In this document: piece by piece, positions 1,096 through 63,569 of the stretch | Position numbering within the stretch: the stretch's first letter is position 1 | Layout of the letters: every line of letters starts with the position of its first letter | Source: Planctomycetota bacterium | Lineage (GTDB): Bacteria; Planctomycetota; Phycisphaerae; WQYP01 | DNA: 64,000 nucleotides | Direction of reading: 5' to 3' | NCBI GenBank assembly: GCA_021819825.1 | Contig: JAKAEZ010000005.1 | Location: 6,542 to 70,541 of the forward strand | Program-made: the position numbers and the translations under genes | The notes under the pieces: generated by a model | Databases searched by the model: none | What the model was told of the DNA's origin: nothing | Seen by the model: only the letters and a program-made list of their open reading frames with translations

Positions 1096-1293
1096 ATGCA
1101 AACCATCGCAACGACCTATTGCACACAATGCGGATACCTGTACTACGGAGAAGACCGCAAGGCAGCAATCAAGGCCAACATCAACCACGGAAGACAGCCC
1201 CAAAACAACAGCCACACCATCGTTACAGAAATCGCCCGCAAGGACCCAACCCGAGAACTCAAACCGATCACAATATTGTCCGCAAACCCCTGA
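1096..1293 (+). CDS. Small CxxC...H...H putative zinc-binding protein (paralog group with 9283-9483 and 9480-9686)
   Basis: 65 aa, ...TYCTQCGYLYYGEDRKAAIKANINHGRQPQNNSH... It has the same CxxC-(18-19 aa)-His-cluster layout as the two tandem mini-proteins downstream of the secretin-like gene. Confidence 0.5.
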   Translation: MQTIATTYCTQCGYLYYGEDRKAAIKANINHGRQPQNNSHTIVTEIARKDPTRELKPITILSANP

Positions 1294-1339
1294 ACAAAAC
1301 GGACCGACCAACAACCACGGGCACCTATTTTACAAGTGA

Positions 1340-1666: not shown

Positions 1667-1678
1667 GGAGCCAGGACA

Positions 1679-1966
1679 ATGGCATCAGAGTACACATACC
1701 ACGGAATCCTGCAGGGAATCAAACCGGCCCTCGACTACAAGGGAAACCCGGAACCCGACTGCCAAGAGGTCATCATCAAGATCGACAGCGGCTTAGCCAC
1801 CGGCAGGGCAACCGGCGACTTCCCAGACATCGCGAAACACTTCGGCAAGGAAATCCGGTTAACCGGCCCAATCACCGTGAAATACTCCGAAAAGATGCGC
1901 AGAGCCTTTACGGACCTCGGCCCCGGCAAAATCACCGCCGCAACCAACCCCGGAAACCTCAAATAA
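1679..1966 (+). CDS. Hypothetical phage protein
   Basis: 95-aa ORF with an AAGGAG Shine-Dalgarno sequence 8 nt upstream of the ATG. Composition looks globular. No motif recognised. Confidence 0.5.
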   Translation: MASEYTYHGILQGIKPALDYKGNPEPDCQEVIIKIDSGLATGRATGDFPDIAKHFGKEIRLTGPITVKYSEKMRRAFTDLGPGKITAATNPGNLK

Positions 1967-1982
1967 GAAAACCTTTTCAAAC

Positions 1983-2038
1983 GGGGCCGGGCGAACGGCC
2001 GACGCGTCTCATAAACCCAGGCCAAGTACCCCGGCCCC
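1983..2038. other. GC-rich long-range hairpin upstream of rep (candidate origin or packaging signal)
   Basis: GGGGCCGGG (1983-1991) pairs with CCCGGCCCC (2030-2038). The loop contains the palindrome GACGCGTC. It is a conspicuous G-containing island in an otherwise G/T-poor strand, in the 90-nt gap before the rep ATG. Confidence 0.3.
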
Positions 2039-2056
2039 TAAGTAAAAAGAGACCAA

Positions 2057-3376: not shown

Positions 3377-3401
3377 CAAAAGAAACAAACAGGAAAAGAA
3401 G

Positions 3402-3662
3402 ATGAGGACGAAAACATGGATATACGTAATCGCGACAATCACTATTACCACGCTGGCATCGCAATCGCACGCATCGCCCGCACCCGTCACAATCTCCCAA
3501 CCGACAACAAGCCCAGTACCGGTATACCAGACGGAACCGGCCTACGACCCAGCCCTCGACGCATGGAGTGTAGTACAGGGATACGGCGACGCATTTTGCT
3601 TATGGGGCTTTACTTGGTCAGTATCGTATGTCTTGCGACTGCTTATCCGAACACTGTCATAG
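3402..3662 (+). CDS. Small exported protein (signal peptide plus hydrophobic-basic C-terminus), capsid or membrane component candidate
   Basis: MRTKTWIYVIATITITTLASQSHA/SPAP... looks like a signal peptide. The C-terminus is ...AFCLWGFTWSVSYVLRLLIRTLS. Start chosen at the internal ATG 3402 of track ORF 3357-3662. Confidence 0.45.
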   Translation: MRTKTWIYVIATITITTLASQSHASPAPVTISQPTTSPVPVYQTEPAYDPALDAWSVVQGYGDAFCLWGFTWSVSYVLRLLIRTLS

Positions 3663-3847
3663 CGTCAAACGCACCCACGACAATGCCAAATGGGGCAACA
3701 ATGACCGACAGCACGAACGACCCAAGCATAGTACTAAGTATCTGGAATGACACCGACCCGTACCTAATCAATCTGGCAGAAGCCATAGCCGCCCTCTGGG
3801 GCGCTTGGTGGGCATGGACGAAATTAACCGACACATTGACCGCCTAA
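3602..3847 (+). CDS. Coat-protein-like small protein (start uncertain: 3602 or 3683)
   Basis: This is the C-terminal part of track ORF 3416-3847. It has a signal-like segment MGLYLVSIVCLATAYPNTVIA, an acidic segment (TDSTNDPS...DTDPY), then the hydrophobic helix AEAIAALWGAWWAWTKL. It shares the WWAW motif with 3875-4210. It overlaps the 3' end of 3402-3662 in another frame. Confidence 0.35.
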   Translation: MGLYLVSIVCLATAYPNTVIASNAPTTMPNGATMTDSTNDPSIVLSIWNDTDPYLINLAEAIAALWGAWWAWTKLTDTLTA

Positions 3848-3874
3848 GCCGGGCCGTCAGAAAGAGAGGCCACG

Positions 3875-4210
3875 ATGTTGAAATCGTTGCTCCAAAACGC
3901 CACATCACGAGGCGTCAAGATCGTGAAGAACACTTACACCGCCCTCGGAAAAACCGGCCGCAAAATGGCCGCGCTGATCTTAGCCGGCGGAACCGTAACC
4001 GCGCTTGCCAACGTAGCGCACGCGAGCACTTCCGGCAGCACCACACCATCGACCGCTGCCGTGCAGTACTCCACCTTCTACAGCATGTACGACGTGCTTA
4101 ACAGCATATTGAACATCCTGTACCCCGTTGTGGTGCCCATCCTCATAGCCGGAAGCGCGATTTTCGTCGCGTGGTGGGCTTGGCACCGCCTCAAGGGAGC
4201 TGTCTCCTAA
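3875..4210 (+). CDS. Major-coat-protein-like (pVIII-like) protein
   Basis: 111 aa. Signal-like MAALILAGGTVTALANVAHA, a Ser/Thr-rich segment, the hydrophobic helix ILYPVVVPILIAGSAIFVAWWAW and the basic tail HRLKGAVS. AGAGAGG lies 5 nt upstream of the ATG. Confidence 0.55.
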   Translation: MLKSLLQNATSRGVKIVKNTYTALGKTGRKMAALILAGGTVTALANVAHASTSGSTTPSTAAVQYSTFYSMYDVLNSILNILYPVVVPILIAGSAIFVAWWAWHRLKGAVS

Positions 4211-4313
4211 GACAGAAGCCCCTTACAGCAACTGTGATCCGGCCGTGCGGCTGGCAGTAGCTTAATCACCCAAGACGGCCCGGCTTAGACGGCCAGCGCG
4301 AAAGGAAAGGACC

Positions 4314-6620
4314 ATGAAACATGTTACACGCAATCAGCTACATCGCAGGAATCCTATTATGGAAGTTCACCATGTACGACACTTGGTTAGGCCCAATGCT
4401 GGACCCGGAAAAATGGCGCAGGCCCCGAAGGTAGCCCTGCACTCCAACGGAGCCAACTTTCTCTACGCCGCCGCCCTCGGAACCGCGATACTGGCCGCCG
4501 CAGCCACCAGCGCAGGCGCGTACACCGCAGGATCAGCGGATTACGGACAAGTAATAAGCCAACTCCAACAAATGAACAGCGAAACCAGCCCAATGGACCA
4601 AGCAACGCTAACCTACCAAGTAGCCCAAGAAAACAACCTGCAAACCATCGAAAGCACCCTAAAGACCGCAACACAAACAAACCTAAACGGCACCCCAATG
4701 TCAATGTTAGCCCAAACAGTCGGCATCGGATCCTACAACCCGCCGACGTCGGCAATGACCTTCTCACCGACATACTACAGCCACGGAGGAACGGCGGCAC
4801 AAGGATTCCAAAGCGTATGGCAATGGATCCCAGGAACCCAAAGCCCCCGAAGCGTCTACGTAGACGGACAAGGATACTCCGTATTCCAAAGCCCCAACGG
4901 GAACAGCTACTTCGACTGGAACCCCTACAACGCGGCCGCCGTCAACGTGGAAACCACCGGCGACGCCAACTGGAACACAGCCAGCGCAACGACCGGAACA
5001 CCGTACAGCGTCTTCCGAGACAACTTCGGAAGCTCAGTGTTCACCAACACCAACGGACAAGCCTACCTATCCGCAGACTATCCCGTGCCACACGTGGCCA
5101 ACACAACTGCCGTTGGATCGGCCTTCACAACCGGCGTCGGCCTACAAACGTCGGTATTCCAATGGCAAGAGTACAACGCCAATACCGGAACCGGTTACGG
5201 CACAACCGAAGATAGCTCCGGATACCCAGAACCCATGTTCTCCGTGTTCACAGCAGGAAGCGGACCAAAATCAGGAAACGGAGCCCACGGCATAGGAAGC
5301 GTATTTGTCACCGACGACACACAAAACGGCAATGTAGACAATAGCGTATTTCTCGACCAATACGGAAACAGCTACCTAGACGACATAGAATCGGCACTAG
5401 CGCTGAGCACACCGACGTACCAAAGCATCTACGGCAACGCCAGCAACGGAAACACCTACGCATACAACCAATCCGGCCAACTCGAATGGATATCGCCATG
5501 GCAGCAAGGAGCCCAAACATACGCACAAACCAACGAACCCATCGGAATCGCCCAAATACTCGCCATAGCAGACGGCGAAGCCCCCGACTACAACCCAGCC
5601 ACCGACACGATAATGTTCACCCCATCCTACCAATACCTAACCAGCGCCAGCACGATGCAAAACCCACTAGAAACCATACAGCAATGGTACGCTGGACCCA
5701 ACGCCGGAGGCTGGCAATACAGCAACGAATTCGCCGCCGCTTTCTTTAATCCACCGGCAAGCGGGGCAACAACGCTTGTCCCTTATTTGTCCGCTTTTGG
5801 AGGCTGGCAAGACTCAATCGCCTACCAAGACAGCTTAACCACCAACGAGAACAACACCACCAGCGCAATAAACACGGCAGAAGGACAGTTGGACACCACT
5901 TTCAACAACTACGCGCCAACAACCACGCCCAGCCCGCAAACACCCGCAACCGGCTTACAAGGCGGCTGGTCCACATCATGGATACTGCCCATCAACGCAA
6001 TATCCACCACAATAGGGACAATCACCGACAGTGACACCGCCACCGAAGGAAACAACGCCGGATACGCCCTCGACAACAACTCGCACAATGTTGTAGGAGC
6101 CATACAAGACCTCATAAGCCGCATCCAACAGGGATCAGGATACAACCCGCCATCCAACCTACTGCAATACACCAAAACAACAAACTTAGCCCCGGAATAC
6201 ACCGGCGACGGAGGCGACAGCCCCAACGGCACAAGCAGCCAATACGCGACACTCGACGCGGTCGACGATGGAGAATTCAGCTTCCTTGCCGGAGCCGTTT
6301 ACGGAATGCAATGGTTCCGAGCCAATACGCCATGGCTGGCCTACATTTTCGGATTTTTCTTAACGCTCTTCACCGTACTGAAGGCATGGCAATTAATCTA
6401 CTGGGGAATCAACGGTGGAAGCTTCCCGCTCATATTCAACCCTCATAACCGCGTCCCCGGCAGCGCCGACTTAACGCCCGGAATAGCCAACATCGCCGGA
6501 ACATCCACGGCCAACGTCAAACCCGACTTTGCCACCACACAAGAACAATGGGAAACCCAGGACAAACTACGAAGCGGCCGCACGTTCACCAAGGCCGCAG
6601 ACGGGACGGAAGTATCATGA
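4314..6620 (+). CDS. Large adsorption/minor-coat (pIII-like) protein
   Basis: 768 aa. N-terminal hydrophobic segment FLYAAALGTAILAAAATSAGA; an N/T/S/G/Y/Q-rich body with recurring SVF motifs; a C-terminal membrane anchor WLAYIFGFFLTLFTVLKAW. GAAAGGAAAGGA ribosome-binding site. An alternative start at 4413 (MAQAPK...) would give a conventional signal peptide. Confidence 0.55.
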   Translation: MKHVTRNQLHRRNPIMEVHHVRHLVRPNAGPGKMAQAPKVALHSNGANFLYAAALGTAILAAAATSAGAYTAGSADYGQVISQLQQMNSETSPMDQATLTYQVAQENNLQTIESTLKTATQTNLNGTPMSMLAQTVGIGSYNPPTSAMTFSPTYYSHGGTAAQGFQSVWQWIPGTQSPRSVYVDGQGYSVFQSPNGNSYFDWNPYNAAAVNVETTGDANWNTASATTGTPYSVFRDNFGSSVFTNTNGQAYLSADYPVPHVANTTAVGSAFTTGVGLQTSVFQWQEYNANTGTGYGTTEDSSGYPEPMFSVFTAGSGPKSGNGAHGIGSVFVTDDTQNGNVDNSVFLDQYGNSYLDDIESALALSTPTYQSIYGNASNGNTYAYNQSGQLEWISPWQQGAQTYAQTNEPIGIAQILAIADGEAPDYNPATDTIMFTPSYQYLTSASTMQNPLETIQQWYAGPNAGGWQYSNEFAAAFFNPPASGATTLVPYLSAFGGWQDSIAYQDSLTTNENNTTSAINTAEGQLDTTFNNYAPTTTPSPQTPATGLQGGWSTSWILPINAISTTIGTITDSDTATEGNNAGYALDNNSHNVVGAIQDLISRIQQGSGYNPPSNLLQYTKTTNLAPEYTGDGGDSPNGTSSQYATLDAVDDGEFSFLAGAVYGMQWFRANTPWLAYIFGFFLTLFTVLKAWQLIYWGINGGSFPLIFNPHNRVPGSADLTPGIANIAGTSTANVKPDFATTQEQWETQDKLRSGRTFTKAADGTEVS

Positions 6621-6985
6621 ACGACGTACTGCAAATCGGAGATTTTGCCGCCAGACTCTTCTGGCATTTTGTTGTAGCCGCCCTTGGCCTCATTCAACAA
6701 CTCATAATATTTGTCACCCAAACCGGCTGGCAATTCCTAACCCAACTCCTCCAGGACGCCGCCAATATCTGCGGACTGGGAAACGCGATCCAACCCATCC
6801 AAGGGGCAATGCTGCCCTACTGGAACGATTGCAGCCTTATTGTCAACTGGATGGCAAGCACTTTCGTGGGCAACGGAACCCTGCAACTCTGCCTAAGCAT
6901 CATCATCAACGCACTGGCCGTCGCGCTGATCCTGCGAGGCGTATTCACCATCTACAGCAAGATACCAGTAGCAGGGAGAAACTAA
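6617..6985 (+). CDS. pVI-like integral membrane protein
   Basis: 122 aa starting at an ATG that overlaps the upstream stop (ATGA at 6617-6620). Hydrophobic segments FWHFVVAALGLIQQLIIFV and LCLSIIINALAVALILRGVF. It sits between the pIII-like and Zot-like genes, as in inoviruses. Confidence 0.45.
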   Translation: MNDVLQIGDFAARLFWHFVVAALGLIQQLIIFVTQTGWQFLTQLLQDAANICGLGNAIQPIQGAMLPYWNDCSLIVNWMASTFVGNGTLQLCLSIIINALAVALILRGVFTIYSKIPVAGRN

Positions 6986-7086
6986 TGATATTCGGATACA
7001 TCGTAATATTCATATTCTGCGTACTACCCACCCTACTTATGCTCGGAATATGCATCATGAACACATGGGAAGAATGGAAAAAGTAA
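6985..7086 (+). CDS. 33-aa hydrophobic peptide (pVII/pIX-like by size)
   Basis: MIFGYIVIFIFCVLPTLLMLGICIMNTWEEWKK. Its ATG overlaps the upstream stop (TAATG). It is too short for the ORF track except as the tail of spurious ORF 6529-7086. Confidence 0.35.
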   Translation: MIFGYIVIFIFCVLPTLLMLGICIMNTWEEWKK

Positions 7087-7089
7087 ACC

Positions 7090-8292
7090 ATGGACGGAAG
7101 CCTTACCATCATCGACGGCGAACCCGGGAACGGCAAAACCCTGCAAACCGTAAGGCTTATGCTGGACTCGGCCCGCAGACACCGCCACATCACAACCAAC
7201 GTGGCACTGAAGGCCGGCTTCATAAGAACCGCCAAGAAAATCTATCCCGACATCAAAATAATCAAACCCACCGCGGCCGAAGCCAAACTATTCTGGCAAT
7301 ACATACCGCCCGGAACCGATATCTACATCGACGAAGCCCATTTACTGTGGAACAGCAACTTTTGGAAGGAAAATCGGCAGAAAGATTTCCTTGAATACAT
7401 CAGCCAATTCCGCAAGGAAGGCGACACCATCTATCTATTGGCCCAGCACTACGAAAATCTTGACCTATTCATACGCCAACGCGCGTCAACACTGTGGACC
7501 TGCCGAGTACTCCGCTGGCCCCGCTGGATACCCATTAAATCACTGAAAACCGATACCGGCGGAAAACCGATACTCTTCTCGGTCAACGCATGGACCACCC
7601 GGGAAGGAGAACGGCACACCCGTAAATTCTTTCTACCCAGAATCTACACGCCCGGAATGTGCCAAGGTCTGTACCAGATGTACGACACCCGAGGAACCGT
7701 CGAAACATCCACAACCGGATACCGACACACCCGCCCAACATGGGCCCAATTCATGCAGCAGCAGGAGCCGAAAACCATGGCAACCATCCTAACCGAGGAC
7801 AACCCGACCGGAGAAGCCCAACCCGCCGCGGCAGCCCCGGCCACGAACCCAACCGTAGTCATCAACAACCAAGCCCCGACCGAACCACAGAAAAAGAGCC
7901 GACTAAAACGATACGCGACGATCACCGCAATCATACTTGCCGCCGGATTCATAGCCACGCAATATCAAAAAGACCACCCCAAAAAGAAAGAAACCCAACG
8001 GGCCAGCACAACGCGGATAGCACGCACAGGACCACCCAAACGACAACGGATCACCTACTACGGAACCATCGGAAACCAAGTCATTGTAAGCCAGAAAGGA
8101 CAATATGGACTCTGGACAATCGGGAAAAGCCAGGACGGATACGGTATCGCTATGGCCAATTCTAACGGTATTTTTCTGCGCGACCCTACTGGGAGGCTGC
8201 ACTACCGGGCTTGGTGGACTCCGCCGACCCATCACAATCACCATGACGCAACAAAGCCCAAACCCGCTACCGGGCCACTGGCCAAGTTTTGA
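7090..8292 (+). CDS. Zot/pI-family filamentous-phage assembly NTPase
   Basis: MDGSLTIIDGEPGNGKT...HITTNV parallels the CTXphi Zot N-terminus (...HHGAPGSYKT...HIITNV, recalled from memory). Walker B IYIDEAH. A single TM (YATITAIILAAGFIATQY) is followed by a ~100-aa periplasmic tail, as in pI. Confidence 0.85.
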   Translation: MDGSLTIIDGEPGNGKTLQTVRLMLDSARRHRHITTNVALKAGFIRTAKKIYPDIKIIKPTAAEAKLFWQYIPPGTDIYIDEAHLLWNSNFWKENRQKDFLEYISQFRKEGDTIYLLAQHYENLDLFIRQRASTLWTCRVLRWPRWIPIKSLKTDTGGKPILFSVNAWTTREGERHTRKFFLPRIYTPGMCQGLYQMYDTRGTVETSTTGYRHTRPTWAQFMQQQEPKTMATILTEDNPTGEAQPAAAAPATNPTVVINNQAPTEPQKKSRLKRYATITAIILAAGFIATQYQKDHPKKKETQRASTTRIARTGPPKRQRITYYGTIGNQVIVSQKGQYGLWTIGKSQDGYGIAMANSNGIFLRDPTGRLHYRAWWTPPTHHNHHDATKPKPATGPLAKF

Positions 8293-19059: not shown

Positions 19060-20397
19060 GTGCTGTCCCGCACGTCAGAGATTCGGTCGTGTCCCCACAG
19101 CGATGTCCGGAGTGCCGCCGTGGATGCTGTCAAGTTTATTCCCGATGATCTCGCGTGCACGATTGCAGGTCTGAACTACCTGCAGACAGTACCGGGCAAA
19201 GCCCTGACTGCGGCGGTAACCCGTCGGCTTGCCCAGGAGAAAACAATTGCGGTTGCGGATGTTGCGTTATGGCGAAGGGAGCATCCCGAATACGCGGTGC
19301 CCTGTGCCATTGCCGTTTCGCAATGCCGCTTAAAAGGCACCGACAAATTTCCTGGAAAGTCCAATGAGCTATGGGCCGTTCCCGAAGCCCTGCAACAGGC
19401 GACCTCGGCCAGAGTCGCCGCCTATAAAGCGCAGCGGATTGCGGAATTAGCGCAGCCCAAAATCGTCCTGGATCTGTGTTGCGGCATCGGCGGCGATATG
19501 CTGGCTCTGTCCCGCATAGCACCCGTGCTGGCGATGGACATCAGCATGGTTCGCGTGTGGATGGCCCACCATAACGCCTTGGTATTTCCCGAAAAATACC
19601 GGGTTATGGCGGTTCAGGGAGATTTGCAGAATTTTCCCGTTCACCTTACGTCCGGAATCTTTGTCCACATTGACCCGGCCCGACGGTCTGATGGGAAGCG
19701 CAATTATGATTTTTCCGCCACGCACCCCGCCCCGAGCGTGCTTTTAAGAATCTTAGAAAAAGCTTACGCCGGCGTTATTAAACTAAGCCCAGCCGTAAAT
19801 TTCTCGACGTTGCCGACTGGACATCTGGAACTCATCAGCGAAAACGGCACCGTTGTACAGGCATTACTTTGGACGGGAAGCGTCGGTACAAAACTCGGCG
19901 AAAATAAACGAACCGCCACGGTCATTGATCGCCGCACAACATGGTCCATTTGCGAATCCAGTACCGACTGTGCCCCTCCGGAATTACATGCCTACCAGCC
20001 GGAAAAGTGGCTCTACGAAATCGACGGCGCTGTTACAAGGAGCCGCCTGGCCGTCGCTCTGGCGAAAGCGATTAAACTGCGCTGGCTTAGCCCTGACGGC
20101 GGTTACATGACCGGCCAGCAATACCTTCACCATCCTGCTTTAGCGGCCTTTGAAGTGTGTGACCATTTCGCTTATACCGAATCGGAACTCTTTAAAAAAC
20201 TAAAACACGCCTGCACCAAATACCCCCCCGCCGCCGGCACCATAGAAGTGAAAACCCGCGGCGGACTGGGGCTGAACACTGATGAATTACAAAAAAAAAT
20301 GTCCAAAATCTGCCATTGCGGTCTCACAGTCCTCATCTATCGTTGCGCACATGGAAAAGCCTGTATCATCGCCCGGCGGCCGATAATCGCCAAATGA
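19060..20397 (+). CDS. Class I SAM-dependent methyltransferase with N- and C-terminal extra domains
   Basis: VLDLCCGIGGDMLAL is SAM motif I (similar to RNA cap guanine-N2/TGS1-like methyltransferases). GTG start; the true start is uncertain. Confidence 0.7.
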   Translation: MLSRTSEIRSCPHSDVRSAAVDAVKFIPDDLACTIAGLNYLQTVPGKALTAAVTRRLAQEKTIAVADVALWRREHPEYAVPCAIAVSQCRLKGTDKFPGKSNELWAVPEALQQATSARVAAYKAQRIAELAQPKIVLDLCCGIGGDMLALSRIAPVLAMDISMVRVWMAHHNALVFPEKYRVMAVQGDLQNFPVHLTSGIFVHIDPARRSDGKRNYDFSATHPAPSVLLRILEKAYAGVIKLSPAVNFSTLPTGHLELISENGTVVQALLWTGSVGTKLGENKRTATVIDRRTTWSICESSTDCAPPELHAYQPEKWLYEIDGAVTRSRLAVALAKAIKLRWLSPDGGYMTGQQYLHHPALAAFEVCDHFAYTESELFKKLKHACTKYPPAAGTIEVKTRGGLGLNTDELQKKMSKICHCGLTVLIYRCAHGKACIIARRPIIAK

Positions 20398-20454
20398 AGA
20401 AAGCAGGCGACGCAGTCGCGTCCACGGAGAGGCGCGTTACGTTCCAATTTATCT

Positions 20455-20717
20455 CTAGTGCCCTGTTCCGGTCATAATTACGGGTTGACGGAGGGCCAAG
20501 GGGTTGTGGGCGCGAAGCGAGGAGGATTGCGTATGGATGCATACGTTGACGGCGAGCGACAAAGCCCGCGGCCCCTTGGCCCCCGCCCGAAGGGTTGGCC
20601 TTAAACCGGCCATCTGCGGCGTCGCGTCGGCTCAAGGGGTTTACGAACCCGGTTCTCGCCGCATCTGGCCGGTTTAAGGCCAATCAACCCGTAATTATGG
20701 CTGGAACAGGGCACTAG
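20455..20717 (+). ncRNA. Unclassified structured RNA element, copy 1 (263 nt)
   Basis: 34-bp closing helix 20455-20488/20684-20717, with two G-U pairs only if the + strand is read. Inner helices: 20490-20503/20572-20584, 20506-20511/20564-20569, hairpin 20530-20545, 20597-20611/20667-20681, 20615-20621/20657-20663, and hairpin 20637-20650 with a UACG loop. The helices covary with copy 2. Confidence 0.75.
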
Positions 20718-20951
20718 CTTTCGGATTGTTTTTTCACCAATTTCGCCTTTTCTTCGTTTGCAAATTCCACACAAAACAATACATATATAGGGCCATTGGG
20801 GCAAATGCGCGTTTCCTCAATCGCGTGTCCTGTCCAGAGACATTTTAGTGTTTTTGATATTTCCTGGGCCACAACGTACAGCGGTCAGGAACGGTTGCAA
20901 CTTTTTTTACCTGTGTTACAGTATTGATCGAAGTCAATACAGGAGATATTC

Positions 20952-21932
20952 ATGCACTATAGAATACTGGGTCGTACCGGCGTTAAAGTAACGCCGCTTT
21001 GTCTGGGCACGATGAATTTTGGATCTCGCAGCGATGAGGCGCAAGCGTGTGCCATTCTGGATGCGTATACATCCCTGGGTGGTAACTTTATTGATACCGC
21101 CAATGTTTACAACGACGGACGATCGGAGGAGATCATCGGGCGCTGGATGAAGCGGACTTCCAAACGCGATGAAATTGTGCTGTCGACCAAAGTCCATGGC
21201 CGCCGATCACCGCACATTAATGATGCCGGCAATCACCGATGGCATATTGTGCGGGAAGTCGAAAAATCGCTTAAGCGTCTGAACACTGAACGCATTGATG
21301 TTTATCATATTCATCGTCCGGATACTGATACGCCCATTGATCAGACGTTGCGGGCGCTGGATGATCTGGTTCGGCAGGGTAAGGTGCTTTATCTGGCCAG
21401 CAGTGTCTTTGCCGGTTGGCAGTTGGCCGAAGCGCATTATGTTGCCCAGTCGCTGGGAACGGCCCGATTTGATATTGAGCAACCGCAATTAAATATTATT
21501 GACCGCCGGATTGAAAGTGAAATCCTGCCCTTCTGCCGCAAGTATGAAGTGGCGACGATCACCTGGGCACCGTTGGCGCGGGGTCGCCTGGCGGGCGTAT
21601 ACACGCGCGGCGGCCGAAAAATTCCCAAGGGCAGTTGGTACGACGCACAAAAGAAAACCGACTTTCCCGCCAGCCAATGGCCGGTAATGGAAGCGGTGGA
21701 TCGGCTGGCCGACGCGCGGGGAGTTTCCAGCAGCCAATTCGCGATCGCCTGGTGTTTGCAGGTTCCGGGCGTCACGTGCCCCATCATCGGTCCGCGCACA
21801 GTTGAACAATTGCAGGATAATATGGCGGCATTAAAGTTCACACTTTCCGCGGAAGAATTAAAAAGCGTAGACGAACTTAATCCACCGGGAAATCTCTGCC
21901 GCGACCCGCAGCTTGGCGCTGTGCCGCGTTAA
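20952..21932 (+). CDS. Aldo/keto reductase
   Basis: LGRTGVKVTPLCLGTMNFG...FIDTANVY..G.SEEIIG is a typical AKR N-terminus. 326 aa. Confidence 0.9.
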   Translation: MHYRILGRTGVKVTPLCLGTMNFGSRSDEAQACAILDAYTSLGGNFIDTANVYNDGRSEEIIGRWMKRTSKRDEIVLSTKVHGRRSPHINDAGNHRWHIVREVEKSLKRLNTERIDVYHIHRPDTDTPIDQTLRALDDLVRQGKVLYLASSVFAGWQLAEAHYVAQSLGTARFDIEQPQLNIIDRRIESEILPFCRKYEVATITWAPLARGRLAGVYTRGGRKIPKGSWYDAQKKTDFPASQWPVMEAVDRLADARGVSSSQFAIAWCLQVPGVTCPIIGPRTVEQLQDNMAALKFTLSAEELKSVDELNPPGNLCRDPQLGAVPR

Positions 21933-22012
21933 CCCAGCGGCCCCGGCACCATTACAGCGCGGAATTAGTACCGCTAAGTGAGCCTTGCGCCGGCACACCG
22001 CGGAGATACAGA

Positions 22013-23113
22013 TTAATCTGATACGTCATCTTGGGGAGATGTAATCTGGTTTTCGGCGTCGGGATCGTCGGCTTGGTTTTTTTTCCGGGCGGTAACCAAT
22101 GTTGCCAGAACCACGCCCAGAACGTACAGCATAACCAGCGGCAGAAAAATGCTGGAAAACGTGACAATATCCGGTGTCGGTGCCAGCAATGCCGAGAGTA
22201 CCGCGAGAATCAGCACCGCATAGCGCCACATTTGGCGGAATTTATGCGCCGGCATAACGCCGATCTGAGCCAATACCATCATGACCATCGGCAATTCAAA
22301 AGCTAATCCGAATACCAGCGCCATGATTGTTACAAATCCCAGATAATCATGGAGCATGGGCAACGGCGCAAAAAGCGAATTGGCCGGCTGCGCATTAATT
22401 GCCAGAGTTTTATTATCCGCGTGAATCAACAGCCGGCCCTGCACGGCGTTATACCAAAGCGCAATGTGATGTTTGGGGAAATGTGTGGGATTGCTGCGCA
22501 CCATCGGTATAAGTAGTGGCTTGGCCTGATCGCCGGTTGGCAAATTAGCCCAATTATTGCCCACCATTTTATTGCCATAAATCAGATTCTCAATGGGGCT
22601 GGGTTGCAGGTGCGGCATGGGCACCTGCTGATTAAATGCGAGAAAAAATTTCAGCATGATTGGCAGCACAAGGAGAAAAAAGAATACCACGCCTGATATA
22701 AACAGGAAGATACTCGGACCGATATATCGATACACCAGCGATCGCTCCCGCTGGTAAAGTCCCGCCGCGACGAAAAGCCAGAACTGATAAATGATCCACG
22801 GGCTGGACAGCAGCAATCCGGCCTTAATTCCCAACATCAGATACATAATGACGTTACCGGCGGGCTTATTGTAAAGCAGATACTGTGGATATCCGGAATA
22901 ACGTAAGGCCAGCAGATACGGCTGAAATAGAAAGTCGATAATGTAATTAGCGAACAACGTGCAGATGGCAATACCAACCGCCGCCCCCAGCAGCGACAGG
23001 ATCAGGCGCTTGCGCAAGTCGTCAAGATGATCGCCAAACGACATGGCGGGCATCTGCTCTTCGTCGCCGGGGGCCTGGGAAATCTTGGCCAGAAAATGTC
23101 GCCATAGGGCCAT
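22013..23113 (-). CDS. tatC: Twin-arginine translocase subunit TatC (with ~90-aa loop insertion)
   Basis: MSFGDHLDDLRKRLI..., six TM segments and the ...LLAPTPDIVT... motif. At 366 aa it is longer than the ~250-260 aa usual length. Confidence 0.85.
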   Translation of the reverse strand: MALWRHFLAKISQAPGDEEQMPAMSFGDHLDDLRKRLILSLLGAAVGIAICTLFANYIIDFLFQPYLLALRYSGYPQYLLYNKPAGNVIMYLMLGIKAGLLLSSPWIIYQFWLFVAAGLYQRERSLVYRYIGPSIFLFISGVVFFFLLVLPIMLKFFLAFNQQVPMPHLQPSPIENLIYGNKMVGNNWANLPTGDQAKPLLIPMVRSNPTHFPKHHIALWYNAVQGRLLIHADNKTLAINAQPANSLFAPLPMLHDYLGFVTIMALVFGLAFELPMVMMVLAQIGVMPAHKFRQMWRYAVLILAVLSALLAPTPDIVTFSSIFLPLVMLYVLGVVLATLVTARKKNQADDPDAENQITSPQDDVSD

Positions 23114-23158
23114 ACGTGTTATATCCGTCTCAATTGGCAGAGGCCAAAGTCCTGCGAC

Positions 23159-23896
23159 TCATAGCGTACTAGCCACAATTTTTCCATCCTGTAACGTTAC
23201 CACCCGGTCCGCCTGGGCCGCAATATGAATATCATGCGTAACCAGAAGAATGCTCTGGCCGCTTCCTTTGTGCAAGCCCCGCAGGACATCCAGAATCGTC
23301 TGGCCGGTCTTGGGATCAAGATTACCTGTCGGCTCGTCCGCCAAGACCAACGCGGGTTCATTGATCAAGGCCCGGGCAATAGCCACACGCTGGCGCTCAC
23401 CACCGGACAACTGCGAGGGTCTGTGCCGCAAACGGTCCTTCAGCCCAAGCTGCTCCAGCAGTTCCAAGGCTCGCCGCTTGCCCGGTCTGGCCCGGATACA
23501 GGCTTTATACCATGGAGCACAAACCATAGCCGGAAGCAGGACATTTTCCAGAACGCTTAATTCCGGTAATAAATGATAAAGCTGAAATACAAAGCCGAAG
23601 GCGTGGTTTCTCAGGCGGTGCCTGGAATGGCGGGAAAGGCGGCTTACCTCCTGCCCGCGGAACATCACCGATCCGGCATCGGCCGACTCCAAAGCGCCGG
23701 CGATATGCAGCAGCGTGCTTTTGCCGGAACCCGAGGCTCCCACCAGCGCGACGAATTCCCCTTCACGAACCGTCAGAGAAGCTCCACATAATACCCGCAC
23801 ATCCGCCGGCCCCAGGCGGAATGTTTTGGTAATGTTGCTTAATTCCAACATCGCTTTACGTGTCGTAAAATCACTGGTCATAGTCGTATTATTCAT
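23159..23896 (-). CDS. ABC transporter ATP-binding protein, LolD/MacB-type
   Basis: GASGSGKST Walker A, LSGGERQRVAIARAL signature, LVLADEPTGNLD Walker B. Start set at ATG 23896 (8-nt overlap with the upstream permease). Confidence 0.9.
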   Translation of the reverse strand: MNNTTMTSDFTTRKAMLELSNITKTFRLGPADVRVLCGASLTVREGEFVALVGASGSGKSTLLHIAGALESADAGSVMFRGQEVSRLSRHSRHRLRNHAFGFVFQLYHLLPELSVLENVLLPAMVCAPWYKACIRARPGKRRALELLEQLGLKDRLRHRPSQLSGGERQRVAIARALINEPALVLADEPTGNLDPKTGQTILDVLRGLHKGSGQSILLVTHDIHIAAQADRVVTLQDGKIVASTL

Positions 23897-25595
23897 AACG
23901 CAGCGCCTCCACCGGATCCTGCCGCGCTGCAAGAATGGCGGGAATTAATGCGCCAAAAAGGCCGGCAAGAATGGCGAAAATCACAATCCACATGACCGCG
24001 TGCGGATCAATCTGATCGGGAATTTTGGAAAAGACGTAAATTTTCCGGTTCCAGATCGAAATGCCGAATATCCGCCATAGTATATGGTCGTGTATCCAAT
24101 TGTCATTGCGTACAAACCAAACTCCGGTAATTAAACCCAGCAAGGCCCCGGCGGAGCTGATCAACATGCCATAAAGCAGGAAAATTACCCCCACTCCTTC
24201 TTCGCTGCCGCCGATGGCTTTGATAATGCCGATATCACGCGTTTTATCCCGCACCATCATGTAAAAAATCAGAAATATGACAATGACCACTACTAAGCTC
24301 ATCAATCCCAGCAGAAAGGTGATCATATTACGCTCGTTGTCCACGGCCCGAATGTACTCTGCCTGCACCTGATCCCACGTTCGCACACGGATACCGGCAA
24401 TTTCCATCTGGGGATGCAGCAACTGCAACTGATGCACGACATGCGCGATCGCTTTGCGGGCGGCCAGAATGTTGGCCTCACGGGAATCATGTCGCACCAG
24501 TACCTGAATTTCACTGCATCGTCCCGGCCGCACTCCACCGGACAGCAGATCCTGCCGTTGCATAAATGCCATTTTCTGGGCGACATGAAACGGGATATAA
24601 ACAGTCTTGGAATCGACGGCGTAGACGCGCGTGCGGGAATCATCCACGATGACAAAACGCCGGCTTTGCGGTTGGGCCAGCGTCGCTTTCATCGTCACCG
24701 GCACCATGGTGATAATGACCGGAGAAAAGCGAACTCCCGGTGGTCGATGATAATGGCCAAAACGATCGCGCTTATACAGTCCCAGATCAACACCGATCAC
24801 GCAGCCATTTTTGGGTTCGTCGGCACCGGTCATATATCGACTGGCGGCCTGTGGCGGCGGAGTAAAGCTTGGAGCCTTGGGTACCAAGGCCTGCCGTAAC
24901 GCCGCGGCACTGCGAAAAGCTTCATTGGGCAATGCCTGCACCATACGCAGATCACGATCCGCGCGATTTTCTTTATAGACCGCCTGCTGATAATCTTCAT
25001 GGGCGATGACTTGCCAATGCTGCCGGATGGCGGCAAACCAGGCATGATTGCCGATGGGCTTAAGATTCGCATAATGCCGCTGGCGAGCCTCTTCGGTCTT
25101 AGCGGCCGCAAGCAGCCGCTTTTGTGCATACGCCAAGAGCTTGGCTCGCGTCGTGGGGAAGCCCACGCCGCGCAAATCCGCCACGGCCTGCATAGGTGCT
25201 TTATACTGCCAGAACAGGCTGCTTCCGAAGGAACTTACTTTGGATTCACTTCCCGCTTCCACGCCCATGACCTGGACACCAGTATTGACCTGAAATTCCG
25301 GCAGATTAAACAGGCCATAACCGCTGATCACGGGCGTACTGGCTTTCACCTGCGGCAACAGGGCCAAGCGTTTTTGAAGTTGCCGATAATACGGAAATCC
25401 GGCCATCGAATCGCTCTGGATCACCACATCGCCCATCAGCGAACGCCCCGCGTCCCGTACGCGGTTGACAAACCCGGTCATGATGCTATTCACGATAATC
25501 AGCATCATGACGCAAAGCCATACCGCCAGCACGGGAAACAGCACAATACCCTTGCGCGTTAGATAACGGAAACAAAGAAATATCTTATACATCAA
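23889..25595 (-). CDS. LolC/E-family (FtsX/MacB-type) ABC permease with enlarged periplasmic domain
   Basis: N-terminal TM (FRYLTRKGIVLFPVLAVWL...) and a C-terminal FtsX-like 3-TM bundle (...IGIIKAIGGSEEGVGVIFLLYG...). The ~390-aa periplasmic domain is larger than usual. Confidence 0.8.
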   Translation of the reverse strand: MMYKIFLCFRYLTRKGIVLFPVLAVWLCVMMLIIVNSIMTGFVNRVRDAGRSLMGDVVIQSDSMAGFPYYRQLQKRLALLPQVKASTPVISGYGLFNLPEFQVNTGVQVMGVEAGSESKVSSFGSSLFWQYKAPMQAVADLRGVGFPTTRAKLLAYAQKRLLAAAKTEEARQRHYANLKPIGNHAWFAAIRQHWQVIAHEDYQQAVYKENRADRDLRMVQALPNEAFRSAAALRQALVPKAPSFTPPPQAASRYMTGADEPKNGCVIGVDLGLYKRDRFGHYHRPPGVRFSPVIITMVPVTMKATLAQPQSRRFVIVDDSRTRVYAVDSKTVYIPFHVAQKMAFMQRQDLLSGGVRPGRCSEIQVLVRHDSREANILAARKAIAHVVHQLQLLHPQMEIAGIRVRTWDQVQAEYIRAVDNERNMITFLLGLMSLVVVIVIFLIFYMMVRDKTRDIGIIKAIGGSEEGVGVIFLLYGMLISSAGALLGLITGVWFVRNDNWIHDHILWRIFGISIWNRKIYVFSKIPDQIDPHAVMWIVIFAILAGLFGALIPAILAARQDPVEALRYE

Positions 25596-25650
25596 TGAAT
25601 CAGGAATGTACCGTCAGTGTGAACCGCCGGTGAAATATCCTTGTCCTTTT

Positions 25651-27186
25651 TCAGGTCTCTTGGGCCGGGACAGGGGAAGTTCCGGTCGCCCCACGGGATT
25701 TAAGCAACGGGAATAACACCACGTCGCGTATGCTGGTTCTATTGGTCAGCACCATCACCAGTCGATCTATCCCGATTCCCAGTCCTCCCGCCGGCGGCAT
25801 TCCGTGGCACAGCGCCGCGATAAAGTCATGATCCATGCGGGCCATGGAATCCTCCTCTCTTAAGCCCGCAAGCTGGGCCGAGAACGTTTCGTACTGTATA
25901 AATGGGTCATTAAGTTCGGTATACGCGTTCGCCAGTTCCATACCGGCGATATAAAGCTCAAAGCGTTCCGCCAGATGGGGCATGTCCACTTTCCGTTTGG
26001 TCAACGGACATAAGCCGGCAGGATAATCGTAAACAAACACCGGTTGATCATAGTCATGAAGTTTTGGCTCGGCCAAGCGTTCAAAGAGTGTTCCCACCAC
26101 TACGTCATGATCCATCTTGTCCACATCGGCCAGGCCATGCTCTACGGCGCGTTGTCGCACCGCGGCATGGTCCGTCATAGGTACACCCACATGCTCAAGG
26201 AATAAATCGCTATAGCTAATGCGTTGAAAGGGTGGGGTAAAATCGATGATTCTTTCACCGTACGGAAGTTTTACCCTGTCTACGGTGGTGGCAGGTCCAT
26301 TAACCGCAGCGTGACGCGCTGCCGCCAGAGACGCCAGCAGTGTTTCGGTAAGTTCCATCATGCCGGCCAGATCGCTATACGCCTGATACAGTTCCAACAT
26401 GGTAAATTCAGGGTTGTGGCTGGTATCAATGCCTTCGTTACGGAAATTCCTGTTGATTTCATAAACCCGTTCCATGCCCCCCACCAGGAGTCGTTTAAGA
26501 AACAGTTCCGGACTGATACGCAAAAATAATTCAATATCCAGGGCATTGTGGTGGGTCACAAAGGGCCGTGCCGCCGCCCCGCCGGGAATCGCCTGCATCA
26601 TGGGCGTTTCCACTTCCACGAATTGCCGGGCCGCAAGGAATTCACGGATCGAACCCATGATGCGGGAACGAGCCAGAAAAACATCCAACGAATCAGCGTT
26701 TGCGGCCAGATCAAGATAGCGCTGGCGATATCGTGCTTCAGTATCAGCCAAGCCATGAAATTTTTCCGGCGGTGGTAATAGCGCTTTGCCGGCCAAGCCA
26801 AAATCATCGGCCCATATCGTGATTTCACCAGTTTTTGTATGTCCAAGCTTGCCGGCAAACCATGCAATATCTCCCAGTTCCAGCAATTTGGCCTGATCCC
26901 ACCGCGGTGCCAGAAACTGCTTGGCCAGACCAATTTGAATTTTGCCGGTCCAATCACTGATGGTAATAAAGATCAACTTGCCGATGTCGCGAAGCAGCGT
27001 AATACGCCCGGCCACTTTAGCGGATGGCCCGCCATCATGGGGCGTGTCAGCGGTGTGCAAACTTCGCGCCGCCGCTGCGGATATCAATGCTTCTAAGCGT
27101 GTACCGAATGGGTCTGTACCACTGGCCCGCCATTTCTCCAGCCGTGCAAGACGGAACTTAAATTCTGGATTATCTGATTGAAGCAT
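25651..27186 (-). CDS. lysS: Lysine--tRNA ligase, class II
   Basis: ...RVYEINRNFRNEGIDTSHNPEFTMLELY... (motif 2) and ...GLGIGIDRLVMVLT... (motif 3). Confidence 0.95.
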   Translation of the reverse strand: MLQSDNPEFKFRLARLEKWRASGTDPFGTRLEALISAAAARSLHTADTPHDGGPSAKVAGRITLLRDIGKLIFITISDWTGKIQIGLAKQFLAPRWDQAKLLELGDIAWFAGKLGHTKTGEITIWADDFGLAGKALLPPPEKFHGLADTEARYRQRYLDLAANADSLDVFLARSRIMGSIREFLAARQFVEVETPMMQAIPGGAAARPFVTHHNALDIELFLRISPELFLKRLLVGGMERVYEINRNFRNEGIDTSHNPEFTMLELYQAYSDLAGMMELTETLLASLAAARHAAVNGPATTVDRVKLPYGERIIDFTPPFQRISYSDLFLEHVGVPMTDHAAVRQRAVEHGLADVDKMDHDVVVGTLFERLAEPKLHDYDQPVFVYDYPAGLCPLTKRKVDMPHLAERFELYIAGMELANAYTELNDPFIQYETFSAQLAGLREEDSMARMDHDFIAALCHGMPPAGGLGIGIDRLVMVLTNRTSIRDVVLFPLLKSRGATGTSPVPAQET

Positions 27187-35079: not shown

Positions 35080-35517
35080 TTATTTACCTTTGCCAAACGC
35101 GTGTCTGATGTAGTTAATTACCTCCCAGCGTTGCTTGCGGCTCAATGAATCACGGAAACTGGGCATGGGGCTGTGACCGTGCGTAATTTTCCAGAAAATA
35201 GCTCCGTCTGTTTGCGCCAGGAAAGAAGCTTTTGTTAAATTGGCCGGATGGGGGTTTAAAAATGCTCCCGTCGGCCCATCTCCTTTTCCATTGGATCCAT
35301 GGCACGCCTCGCAATTTTGAGAAAATATCGCGTATCCCGCTTGAATGGCTGCCGCGGACATGGGAATAGGATTTTTCTTTTTCCATGCGGAATGCGGAGC
35401 TTTCCAACTTGATAATGCAATGGGTTTGCCAACGGTGGAAATGGCGATATTACCGTTGCTTGCCACCATGGCAGAGCCGATGATGACCACCGCTAGTTTC
35501 GATAAGTTTGACAACAT
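35080..35517 (-). CDS. Class I c-type cytochrome (paralog A)
   Basis: Signal peptide, CEACH heme motif, ...HSPMPSF... distal Met region. The C-terminal ~90 aa are near-identical to those of 35954-36397. Confidence 0.85.
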   Translation of the reverse strand: MLSNLSKLAVVIIGSAMVASNGNIAISTVGKPIALSSWKAPHSAWKKKNPIPMSAAAIQAGYAIFSQNCEACHGSNGKGDGPTGAFLNPHPANLTKASFLAQTDGAIFWKITHGHSPMPSFRDSLSRKQRWEVINYIRHAFGKGK

Positions 35518-35953: not shown

Positions 35954-36397
35954 GTGATGAATCAGCTACGCACGATCTTAGCAGTTGGTGGACTAGTAAG
36001 CGTCTTGGGTGTGTCCTTGGCGGCAGGCTTGAACATAAATACCTTCCGGAAGCAAATAGACCGCGTGGATTCATGGCGGGCACCTGCTTCCGCTGCGTCA
36101 AAAGCGAACCCAATTCCCGGTACTTCGGCCGCCATAAGCGCGGGCAGGAGCCTGTTTTCCGCCAATTGTGAGGCGTGTCACGGATCCAATGGCACGGGGG
36201 ATGGTCCGACCGGAGCGTTTCTAAGCCCGCATCCGGCTAATTTAACCACGGCATCGTTCTGGTCTCAGGGCGAAGGGGCCATCTTCTGGAAAATCACGCA
36301 TGGTCACAGCCCCATGCCCAGCTTCCGTGATTCATTGAGCCGTAAACAGCGATGGGAAGTTATTGATTATCTCAAGAAGCAATTCGATAAACATTAA
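35954..36397 (+). CDS. Class I c-type cytochrome (paralog B)
   Basis: Signal peptide, CEACH heme motif, ...GAIFWKITHGHSPMPSFRDSLSRKQRWEV... Confidence 0.85.
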   Translation: MMNQLRTILAVGGLVSVLGVSLAAGLNINTFRKQIDRVDSWRAPASAASKANPIPGTSAAISAGRSLFSANCEACHGSNGTGDGPTGAFLSPHPANLTTASFWSQGEGAIFWKITHGHSPMPSFRDSLSRKQRWEVIDYLKKQFDKH

Positions 36398-50030: not shown

Positions 50031-50304
50031 CTAGTGCTCTGTCACGCCTAAATATTAGGATTGACGGAGGGCCAGGGGGCTGTGGGCGCGAAGCGAGGAG
50101 GATTGTGTATGGGAACATACATTGACGACAAGCGACAAAGCCCACGGCCCCCTGGCCCCCGCCCCGCGGGGTTGGCCGCAAACGCCCCATCTGCGGCGTC
50201 GCAGCAGCTCAAGGGGTCTACGGACCGGGTTTTCGCCGCTGCTTCTTGCATCTGGGGCCTTTGCGGCCAATCAATCCTAATATTTAGGCGTGACAGAGCA
50301 CTAG
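50031..50304 (+). ncRNA. Unclassified structured RNA element, copy 2 (274 nt)
   Basis: Perfect 34-bp closing helix 50031-50064/50271-50304. Same helix architecture and conserved single-stranded blocks as copy 1, with a GGAA (GNRA) loop and a UACG loop. 13 of 34 closing-helix positions differ from copy 1, and every one is compensated. Confidence 0.75.
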
Positions 50305-62790: not shown

Positions 62791-62843
62791 GCCCAGGAGC
62801 CTGTCCCAGTAATGGCCGGGATTGCGATTACTCGGACAGGCTC

Positions 62844-63569
62844 CTATCGGACAGGCGGAATTGAGGCCTCTGTCAAAACGTTCGTATTTGAGGCATGGCT
62901 CGGCAATAAATCGGCATAGTATCGACCATCGCGTACAACCACCTGTCCTGTTTGCACATCCAATGGCTGCGAAAAAATCGGACCGGCATAAACAAAGGTA
63001 TGAAACTCCCCATTTTCCCCGCAGGGATCAATGTCGGCAGGCAAATCAGAAAGTAATTGATTATCAAAGCTCCGCCCCCCAAACCCCGGCCCAACCTTGT
63101 CTTCAACACAGGAAAGATACCCTTTAAAACCCAGAGCAATTATCTCTCGGGCCAAAACCGAGGTAGGACGTTTCCAGAGCGGAAATATCGCCTGCATACC
63201 AATGGTAGCCAGATTTTTCTCCCGCCAGGCCCGAAGATCCTCCAAAAATAAATCGCCAAAGCCCACGGTTTCAACGCCCCGGCGTTTATAGCGGCCCATG
63301 GCGTCACCCATGATCTGTTCGTAAACTGCGTTGGTGCAGGGATGGGAATTTTGGGAGGGCAAATAGATTTTATCCAATGGAATGCCAATCGCCTGGGCCT
63401 GCAACTCCAGCAATTCCTCGCGCACGCCATGGTGACTGATACGTTTGAATTCTTCGGAGACTGTGGTCAGCAACGCCACCACTTCGTAATCCGCGCGGCG
63501 GGACAGCTCATAAAGCGCCATCGCACAATCTTTTCCCCCGCTCCAGGATAGGACCACCGGTATTTTCAT
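62844..63569 (-). CDS. PP-loop ATP pyrophosphatase, Dph6-related (DUF71/MJ0570 family)
   Basis: MKIPVVLSWSGGKDCAMAL is an SGGKD PP-loop. ~240 aa. Confidence 0.75.
   Translation of the reverse strand: MKIPVVLSWSGGKDCAMALYELSRRADYEVVALLTTVSEEFKRISHHGVREELLELQAQAIGIPLDKIYLPSQNSHPCTNAVYEQIMGDAMGRYKRRGVETVGFGDLFLEDLRAWREKNLATIGMQAIFPLWKRPTSVLAREIIALGFKGYLSCVEDKVGPGFGGRSFDNQLLSDLPADIDPCGENGEFHTFVYAGPIFSQPLDVQTGQVVVRDGRYYADLLPSHASNTNVLTEASIPPVR

Follow-up and report, generated by a model that had tools for sequence, protein, structure and literature searches.

A Y-shaped foldback repeat of uncultured Phycisphaerae, probably from an undescribed MITE-like mobile family

Introduction

The term MITE (miniature inverted-repeat transposable element) denotes DNA repeats of less than about 500 bp that have inverted repeats but no coding capacity, occur as dispersed copies and are mobile (features reviewed in PMC10969869 and PMC2229807). 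Here we describe a ~270-bp repeat with all of these properties, the Y element, found in a 64,000-nt stretch of a Planctomycetota bacterium genome (GenBank assembly GCA_021819825.1, contig JAKAEZ010000005.1; "the window" hereafter). One copy in the window (copy 1) had been given an initial annotation as an unclassified, Y-shaped structured RNA, possibly linked to the methyltransferase gene upstream. Our analysis indicates that copy 1 is very probably a member of a previously undescribed, non-autonomous foldback-type (MITE-like) DNA repeat family of uncultured Phycisphaerae related to Tepidisphaeraceae.

Described prokaryotic MITEs, including Correia elements (CREE), ERIC, Nezha and Chunjie, resemble the Y element in being small and non-coding, in carrying inverted repeats and in reaching tens of copies per genome. 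Like the Y element, they lie mostly in intergenic regions near gene ends, fall into subfamilies, decay, insert within or next to one another and vary in presence between strains, and their transcripts are predicted to form very stable stem-loops. The Y element differs from them in being G+C-rich rather than A+T-rich, in having no sequence similarity to a known family (by Rfam, and by blastn against plasmid and phage collections), and in combining a nested, covarying three-way palindrome with invariant purine-rich non-canonical pairs and a flanking CTAG that does not look like a simply duplicated target. In behavior it is closest to the Correia-type elements of Neisseria, which share termini of the form ..TAGTG.. 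beside TA, and whose long terminal helix is an RNase III substrate in read-through mRNA (PMC2649163, PMC10969869). CREE differ in being 100-155 bp long and confined to Neisseria, with 26-bp inverted repeats, a duplicated TA, an IHF site and promoters, none of which was found here.

Other mobile DNAs share single aspects of this architecture. The insertion sequence (IS) IS630 inserts at TA, with a preference for the TA of 5'-CTAG-3' (Tenzen and Ohtsubo 1991, cited in PMC2170065), and in keeping with IS630/Tc1-mariner elements every intact Y copy is flanked C-TA...TA-G; in IS630, however, the target TA pre-exists, whereas empty alleles of the Y element within a species read CAAG and CCAG. Non-autonomous palindrome-associated transposable elements (PATE) of the IS200/IS605 type have different left and right subterminal hairpins, lack inverted repeats and insert 3' of a fixed tetranucleotide without duplication; we rejected this class because the Y ends are perfect inverted repeats and the empty allele lacks the left-junction tetranucleotide. 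Finally, integron attC sites, the forked hairpin of CTX-phage attP and the T-shaped inverted terminal repeats of parvoviruses such as adeno-associated virus (AAV) also have a long stem with arms, conserve structure over sequence and carry strand-specific non-canonical features. They differ in being sites within larger replicons that are served by tyrosine recombinases or Rep, whereas the Y element is free-standing at ~270 bp with no linked enzyme, and the likeness is one of architecture only.

Results

Y elements are precise, polymorphic insertions

Copy 1 is missing from the corresponding position of a group of related contigs (L050-L060; loci outside the window are given L numbers) whose aldo/keto reductase orthologue is 95-97% identical at the amino-acid level and whose gene order is methyltransferase (+), a 627/628-residue gene (-), reductase (+) and TatC (-). 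Window positions 19800-20459 align to L050 243-922, and 20719-20773 to L050 923-977. Since the window flanks are contiguous in L050, copy 1 represents an exact insertion between bases that are adjacent in the relatives. The empty alleles read ..ATCT CCCG CTTTCGG.. in L053 and ..ATCG CTCG TTTTCGG.. in L050, and the filled allele of the window reads ..ATCT CTAG[TGCC...GGCA]CTAG CTTTCGG...

The SecDF site of L001 (JAKATV01) gives a comparison at closer range, with contigs whose SecDF is 99.6-99.7% identical being filled, empty or occupied by a collapsed remnant. Three are filled (L001, L068 and L069; ..GGCGA CTAG[..]CTAG CAACTT..), and the same-species L070 and L071 are empty (..GGCGA CAAG CAACTT..), as are L065 and L066. 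L071 carries another copy, of the type-2 subfamily described below, 50 nt downstream of the SecDF site, which L070, L001 and L067 lack; here the filled allele reads ..GGGATT CTAG TGCTCTG.. (left junction only; the contig ends within the element) and the empty allele ..GGGATT CCAG GGAGTC... Precise insertion at these three filled/empty sites shows that the Y element is mobile. In three loci (L001, L019 and L012), the end of the flanking gene is the TAG of the terminal CTAG, and in L001 the element's CTAG leaves SecDF 6 residues shorter than the same-species alleles. Two further routes to an empty site were uninformative: synteny with L030 and L040 stops before the element, and for homologues of the YHYH gene beside copy 2 the next relatives are only 65% identical.

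The remnant at the SecDF site (L067 5004-5049; ENA ERZ27237183 k141_610234) is a 46-nt perfect hairpin made of the element's first 19 and last 27 nt, with its turn at an internal TAATTA palindrome. Possible origins are excision (as a footprint), a palindrome-driven deletion or a mobile mini derivative.

As initially annotated, copy 1 starts some 58 nt (57-58 nt by our count) past the stop, at 20397, of an ORF (open reading frame) with a weak Methyltransf_15 match. The functional link that this proximity had suggested is refuted, since sister lineages hold the methyltransferase and the aldo/keto reductase without the element and other copies lie beside unrelated genes; the position of copy 1 is an accident of insertion. 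On its other side, the window lacks the 627/628-residue minus-strand gene (no Pfam match on record; L050 978-2823) that separates methyltransferase and reductase in the relatives, and positions 20719-20773 are its last ~18 codons, left behind by a deletion. The loss was probably independent of copy 1, because the deletion edge lies 56 nt away. This gene would have taken its stop from the right CTAG of copy 1, two codons earlier than in L050. A T-run after copy 1, considered as a terminator tail, was rejected, being the remnant 3' end of the deleted gene.

A narrow family with two subfamilies

The second copy reported initially is present (Table 1). Its inverted repeat has one extra pair (50030/50305), and it is ~83% identical to copy 1 across the aligned 5' 210 nt. 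Searching the GTDB species-representative genomes with an exact 22-mer from arm A, GGGCGCGAAGCGAGGAGGATTG, returned 36 loci in five metagenome-assembled genomes (MAGs), all Phycisphaerae/Planctomycetota (DZDI01, 14; DAHVEJ01, 10; JAKATV01, 9; JBMFGW01, 2; JAJYZF01, 1). Copies with the exact 22-mer number at least 9-16 per MAG, each with different flanks. Most of these loci lie within ~250 nt of a contig end, a pattern typical of repeats at which short-read assemblies break. BLAST and nhmmer recover 43 copies, full or partial. A scan of Joint Genome Institute (JGI) metagenomes with a different central pattern found two true copies among nine matches (L044 and the more divergent L040), and since it added only these two the family appears narrow. 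Aldo/keto reductase homologues of the window gene come from sources named Tepidisphaeraceae or Phycisphaerales.

Complete copies are 263-278 bp long, and they all, both window copies included, have terminal inverted repeats of 34-35 bp that are 94-100% complementary. The element is non-coding: ORFs are not conserved across copies, between which 1-nt and 11-nt indels occur. Because these indels shift the frame from copy to copy, we rejected a small ORF that might have been hidden behind GGAGGA...ATG in arm A. Two subfamilies share single genomes, the window included, with type 1 (copy 1) having termini CTAGTGCCCTGTTCCGGYCATAATTACGGGTTGA and type 2 (copy 2) CTAGTGCTCTGTCACGCCTAAATATTAGGATTGA. 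Copies are intergenic with flanks unrelated to each other; of the nearest upstream genes, 19 share the strand of the copy and 16 lie on the opposite one. L013 holds two copies 3.3 kb apart in opposite orientations. Decayed copies occur as well, being internally deleted (L002), truncated (L010, L029 and L035) or reduced to a solo terminus (L025, beside UbiE/UbiX/UbiA genes). A comparison of DZDI01 with the window gives ~90-93% identity for the element and ~66% for the flanking genes, which reflects recent spread, horizontal transfer or strong constraint.

No described family accounts for these copies. A whole-window search of Rfam, whose scope includes 6S, RNase P, SRP, tmRNA, Y RNA, HEARO/omega RNA and riboswitches, yielded nothing at gathering thresholds. 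With the cutoff relaxed to E<=10 over 600 nt around copy 1, only three chance-level matches appeared, each lying beyond the element or on the opposite strand. ARAGORN detected no tRNA or tmRNA. The initial finding that copy 1 belongs to no known RNA class is thereby upheld. Comparison of the element with plasmid and phage collections by blastn gave no match, and no cognate IS with matching termini was present among the loci examined.

The folded strand is conserved by covariation

The predicted minimum free energy (MFE) structure of copy 1 (20455-20717, + strand) is the initially described Y, with a 34-bp closing helix and two arms, at -182.4 kcal/mol, where 200 dinucleotide shuffles give -106.0 +/- 5.3 (z = -14.5). 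Arm A comprises the helices GGAGGGCCAAGGGG/CCCCUUGGCCCCC and GUGGGC/GCCCGC followed by a CGUAUG-GAUG-CAUACG hairpin, and arm B the helices GGCCUUAAACCGGCC/GGCCGGUUUAAGGCC and UGCGGCG/CGCCGCA followed by a GGGUU-UACG-AACCC hairpin; relative to other type-1 copies, the family alignment shows an 11-nt internal deletion in arm B of copy 1. Within arm A, positions 20517-20526 (GCGAGGAGGA) face 20548-20557 (GACGGCGAGC) to give three repeats of G-C, G·A, A·G, and 20512-20518 is the heptamer GCGAAGC, known to form an unusually stable DNA mini-hairpin. With 32 Watson-Crick and two G·U pairs (94% complementary as DNA), the closing helix is not the fully perfect duplex that had been claimed. The minus strand (-160.9 kcal/mol, z = -13.4) and the + strand computed as single-stranded DNA (-103.7 kcal/mol, z = -14.2) fold almost equally well, so the fold of copy 1 alone is not diagnostic of RNA; either DNA strand, or a transcript, is predicted to adopt the Y.

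Table 1. Y-element and family B features located in the window.
Feature	Position	Strand	Basis and remarks
Copy 1, subfamily type 1	20455..20717	+	263 nt CTAG-to-CTAG; nhmmer E = 2.8e-90; precise insertion relative to L050 and L053
Left terminal inverted repeat (closing helix, 5' strand)	20455..20488	+	Inverted-repeat search, pair table
Arm A (outer helix, conserved 'internal loop', terminal hairpin 20529-20546)	20489..20585	+	Fold, pair table
3-bp hairpin CCC-GAA-GGG, three-way junction between arms	20586..20594	+	Fold, pair table (helix 5)
Arm B	20595..20683	+	Inverted-repeat search, fold, pair table
Right terminal inverted repeat (closing helix, 3' strand, CTAG at end)	20684..20717	+	Inverted-repeat search, pair table
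Copy 2, subfamily type 2	50031..50304	+	274 nt CTAG-to-CTAG; between convergent GH127 and YHYH genes
Mini family B hairpin, 57 nt	62792..62848	.	Only two termini (GGAGCCTGTCC.AGTAAT and inverse); between convergent genes

Compensatory change across copies, which the initial annotation made a test of its reading, is borne out in the larger family. In 11 complete copies (set A3; 106 pairs scored), which like those in the strand comparisons below share ancestry, standard pairs fill 97.7% of cells, and 29 of the 106 pairs change on both sides compared to 19.6 +/- 1.8 in column shuffles (0 of 500 reach the observed number). Sliding the partners by 1-3 columns leaves only 0-7 both-sided pairs, and the covariation score is 0.263 versus 0.121. 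The pairs changed on both sides are spread over the closing helix (17/34), arm A (5) and arm B (7), and the outer helix of arm B exists in three mutually compensated versions, GGCCTTAAACCGGCC, GGCCGCAAACGCCCC and GGCCGGAAACGGGCC. Covariation in the closing helix alone could arise from co-evolving transposase sites at the two ends. That within the arms is not explicable by end sites, so that pairing inside one strand is being preserved.

Which strand is preserved was judged from the non-Watson-Crick pairs. The closing helix contains G·U and A·C cells in equal measure (19 versus 22, or 10 versus 7 after cleaning), which makes it too strong to hold, as was done initially, that G-U pairing is meaningful in a + strand transcript only. 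The part of that view that holds concerns the arms, where fixed pairs are G·U and G·A on the + strand: high-frequency non-Watson-Crick pairs are almost all + strand G·U (for example columns 50/117, 51/116, 53/114, 75/92, 165/210, 176/201, 177/200 and 179/198), and the arm A 'loop' GCGAGGAGGA opposite GACGACGAGC, or (G-C, G·A, A·G)x3, is nearly invariant in 29-33 copies (columns 54-75 being a search pattern, as weighed below) and on the opposite strand becomes a set of pyrimidine-pyrimidine mismatches. The + strand is also the stabler one in 10 of 11 copies, by 6-27 kcal/mol, the exception being L040. A further argument, from the UNCG tetraloop, is not supported: loop sequences vary between copies (GAUG, GGAA, GAGG, GAUA, AGAA) and UACG is not invariant, although loops of the C(UACG)G and GGAA kinds do occur in type-2 copies. 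DNA, like RNA, tolerates tandem G·A pairs and G·T wobbles, and a scan for sigma-70-type promoters found none within, before or beside copy 1. Overall, a folded + strand probably matters, as RNA or as single-stranded DNA.

Junctions and termini

Where empty alleles have one tetranucleotide, filled alleles have two, and the lengths fit a 4-bp or a 2-bp duplication. The flanking CTAG is nonetheless unlike a classical target-site duplication, and in the same-species empty alleles the central dinucleotide is AA or CA rather than the pre-existing TA of IS630/Tc1-mariner targets. CTAG is ~3.5-fold under-represented in the window (26 occurrences versus an expectation of 92 +/- 9 by dinucleotide shuffling); the two Y-element copies account for four of the 26 with their ends, and about seven are unoccupied and intergenic. 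A mutation to CTAG shortly before each insertion is possible and would have to happen twice. Because CTAG is depleted, recently arisen sites could make up a sizeable share, which by our own rough estimate is ~10-30% of all CTAG sites at 0.3-1% divergence. As sources of the double CTAG we rejected exchange by a tyrosine recombinase or at a circle junction, carry-over of a donor flap, and Tc1-like insertion at AA, since all of these should give either one junction of target type or a duplicated AA. In decayed copies the end tetranucleotides still pair with each other (CTGG/CCGG in L033, CTAG/CTGG in L018, and CTGG/CTGG with G·T in L036), and the terminal tetranucleotides behave as part of the helix.

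Conservation of the termini extends to a second family. Family B elements are ~286 nt long with termini CTAG/CTGG-GAGCCTGTCCAAGTAATA (full-length in L036), carry an arm-B-like module in common with the Y element and likewise fold, with a long closing helix that branches internally (-167 kcal/mol, z = -10.0). The first ~15 nt of copy 1 (CTAGTGCCCTGTTCC) are the portion of its left terminus that is conserved between the Y subfamilies, and Y-element termini, which begin CTAG-TGC-YCTGT, share with those of family B (CTAG-GAG-CCTGTCC) a terminal ~15 nt of the form CTAG, 3 nt, CTGT, C. From this sequence conservation we infer a putative enzyme recognition site. The two families also meet physically, in a Y element/family B chimera (L005) and in L044 and L020, where a family B remnant has a Y element exactly at its terminal CTAG. 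The window hairpin at 62792-62848 is a collapsed mini derivative of family B, analogous to the L067 derivative of the Y element.

Several loci show rearranged surroundings. L037 is 99.7% identical to window 20455-25932 with a different left flank, and at the copy-1 site it has a chimera of type 2 (5') and type 1 (3') joined within a 25-nt identical core; L015 and L064 have the right flank of copy 2 in common with other left flanks. Near-identical strains thus differ on one side of the same copy (L015 1-2416, L064 ~1600-1877, L037 1-3503), and the elements may coincide with rearrangement breakpoints, through recombination between copies, or with assembly chimeras at repeats. Just upstream of the chimeric element, L037 ~3375-3445 (ENA ERZ27237538 k141_61048) contains ~10 units of tandem heptamers (GAACCTA/GAACCTG/GAACTTA). 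In L026 (5315-5346), a full type-2 copy (CTAGTGCTCTGTCACG...) is directly preceded by 16 nt that repeat the left terminus in degenerate form (CCAGTGTTCTGTCACG).

Other features of the window

The window also contains a filamentous-phage-like (inovirus-like) prophage at ~950-11400, with an ORF matching Zot / protein I morphogenesis models (7090-8292), an ORF matching TraX (9452-10375) and an ORF with a weak Rep_trans / endonuclease match (2057-3376). The prophage is bracketed by 39-nt direct repeats (946-984 and 11364-11402, 74% identical) that may be its attachment sites. Elsewhere, two paralogous cbb3-type cytochrome c genes lie head-to-head in inverted orientation (35080-35517, -, and 35954-36397, +), and these paralogues explain a 220-nt, 78% inverted repeat (35106-35325 / 36155-36374).

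Discussion

Our data identify copy 1 as one of a set of dispersed mobile repeats with terminal inverted repeats and presence/absence polymorphism, and not as the discrete RNA gene that was first proposed. An IS-type explanation, which the initial annotation had set against its own RNA reading, applies here through direct evidence for mobility and without a match to a known IS. In the MITE-like model that we favor, Y copies would be moved in trans by an enzyme that reads the conserved ~15-nt termini common to family B, and the remainder of the long helix and the arms would need only to pair. A role for the folded single strand, more likely the + strand, would lie in mobility or follow from read-through transcription. 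If the latter applies, an RNase III-type enzyme would be expected to cut the long duplex by analogy to the Correia elements of Neisseria, and such cleavage of Y-element transcripts is a plausible consequence of read-through.

Several observations weigh against a plain version of this model. No autonomous partner or transposase, including one of IS630 type, is found among 20 ORFs from the window and the five ORFs beside the solo terminus in L025. The interior loops are the most conserved part of the element and the helices covary, whereas typical MITEs conserve their termini and let the interior drift; the invariance of columns 54-75 is partly ascertainment, since they are the search pattern, while the facing 3' strand lies outside it. 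This pattern points to a constraint on the folded strand for which a plain cut-and-paste model has no need. The junctions are equally unusual: at the three sites unoccupied alleles read CAAG or CCAG within species and CTCG or CCCG across species and never CTAG, whereas CTAG stands at all visible junctions of occupied alleles (left and right for the window and L001, left only for L071). Lastly, strain-specific flank differences at the elements could be metagenome assembly chimeras and not real rearrangements.

The folded strand could have a more direct role. We entertain only tentatively, as an unlikely variant, a foldback element moved or maintained via its folded + strand by a non-classical mechanism, in which an enzyme reads the Y hairpin with its (G-C, G·A, A·G)x3 motif. 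The helix arms would then be kept complementary by templating or selection, and insertion at a near-cognate C-N-N-G target would place a CTAG supplied by the element at either side. If true, bacterial non-autonomous transposons would gain a new mechanistic variety, possibly one that involves a single-strand-specific recombinase or nuclease. Movement as a folded single DNA strand rather than as a duplex MITE, with a recombinase or nuclease acting on the + hairpin as for attC, CTX-phage attP or IS200/IS605 ends, is to our minds improbable. It would accommodate helices that conserve structure over sequence, strand-asymmetric non-canonical pairs, the GCGAAGC heptamer, the single-stranded DNA fold (z = -14), the change from CAAG or CCAG at unoccupied sites to CTAG at the occupied junctions seen, and the persistent pairing of terminal tetranucleotides in decayed copies (L033, L036); the window also holds a filamentous-phage-like prophage that has a Rep-like gene of the rolling-circle type. 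It sits poorly with the perfect inverted repeats and their conserved tips, a feature typical of DDE transposases that bind duplex DNA rather than of IS200/IS605-type ends, with the lack of an HUH or tyrosine enzyme linked to the element, and with the oppositely oriented copies of L013, which give no obvious strand bias; moreover, no simple scheme that we wrote out yields CTAG on both sides from CAAG.

Two further explanations take the structure as primary. That the Y element is a family of stand-alone structured non-coding RNA genes, with multiple copies of a functional Y-shaped + strand transcript under selection, is very improbable, even though strong covariation, the lack of a known family match, + strand-only fixed G·U and (G-C, G·A, A·G)x3 pairs, the stabler + strand in 10/11 copies and the C(UACG)G and GGAA loops of type-2 copies all fit it. 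Gene-like behavior is contradicted by insertion/absence polymorphism within species, by truncated, deleted and chimeric copies, and by the shortening of SecDF by 6 residues on insertion, which is selfish. Nor does copy 1 have a promoter-like site in or before it, and an upstream promoter could not travel with a mobile unit that begins right at the base of the helix; orientation relative to genes is unbiased, closing-helix G·U equals A·C, and the loops vary. Finally, repetitive extragenic palindromes (REPs) of the REP/BIME/REPIN type, spread by a REP-associated tyrosine transposase (RAYT), are likewise intergenic, palindromic and multi-copy with hairpins kept by compensatory changes, and hairpin-only short derivatives exist here (window 62792-62848 and L067). 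REPs are 20-40 bp palindromes with a GTAG or CGTC tag at one end (PMC3733652), whereas the Y element is ~270 bp with a nested three-way architecture and CTAG-TGC termini, it has no GTAG/CGTC tag, and no RAYT gene was seen among the window ORFs examined, making this origin scarcely credible.

Recognizing copy 1 as a mobile repeat removes a false lead, in that it is not a new riboswitch-like or methyltransferase-linked RNA, and adds what is apparently the first repeat family of this type in Phycisphaerae. For genomics of the group, the Y element breaks MAG assemblies and may mark strain rearrangement breakpoints. If its non-classical junctions and strand-specific covarying fold hold, it offers a tractable case for how foldback elements are recognized and moved. 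If copies are transcribed, they would place ~35-bp perfect duplexes in the 3' and 5' untranslated regions of many genes, and would thereby constitute a ready-made RNase III regulon comparable to that of the Correia elements.

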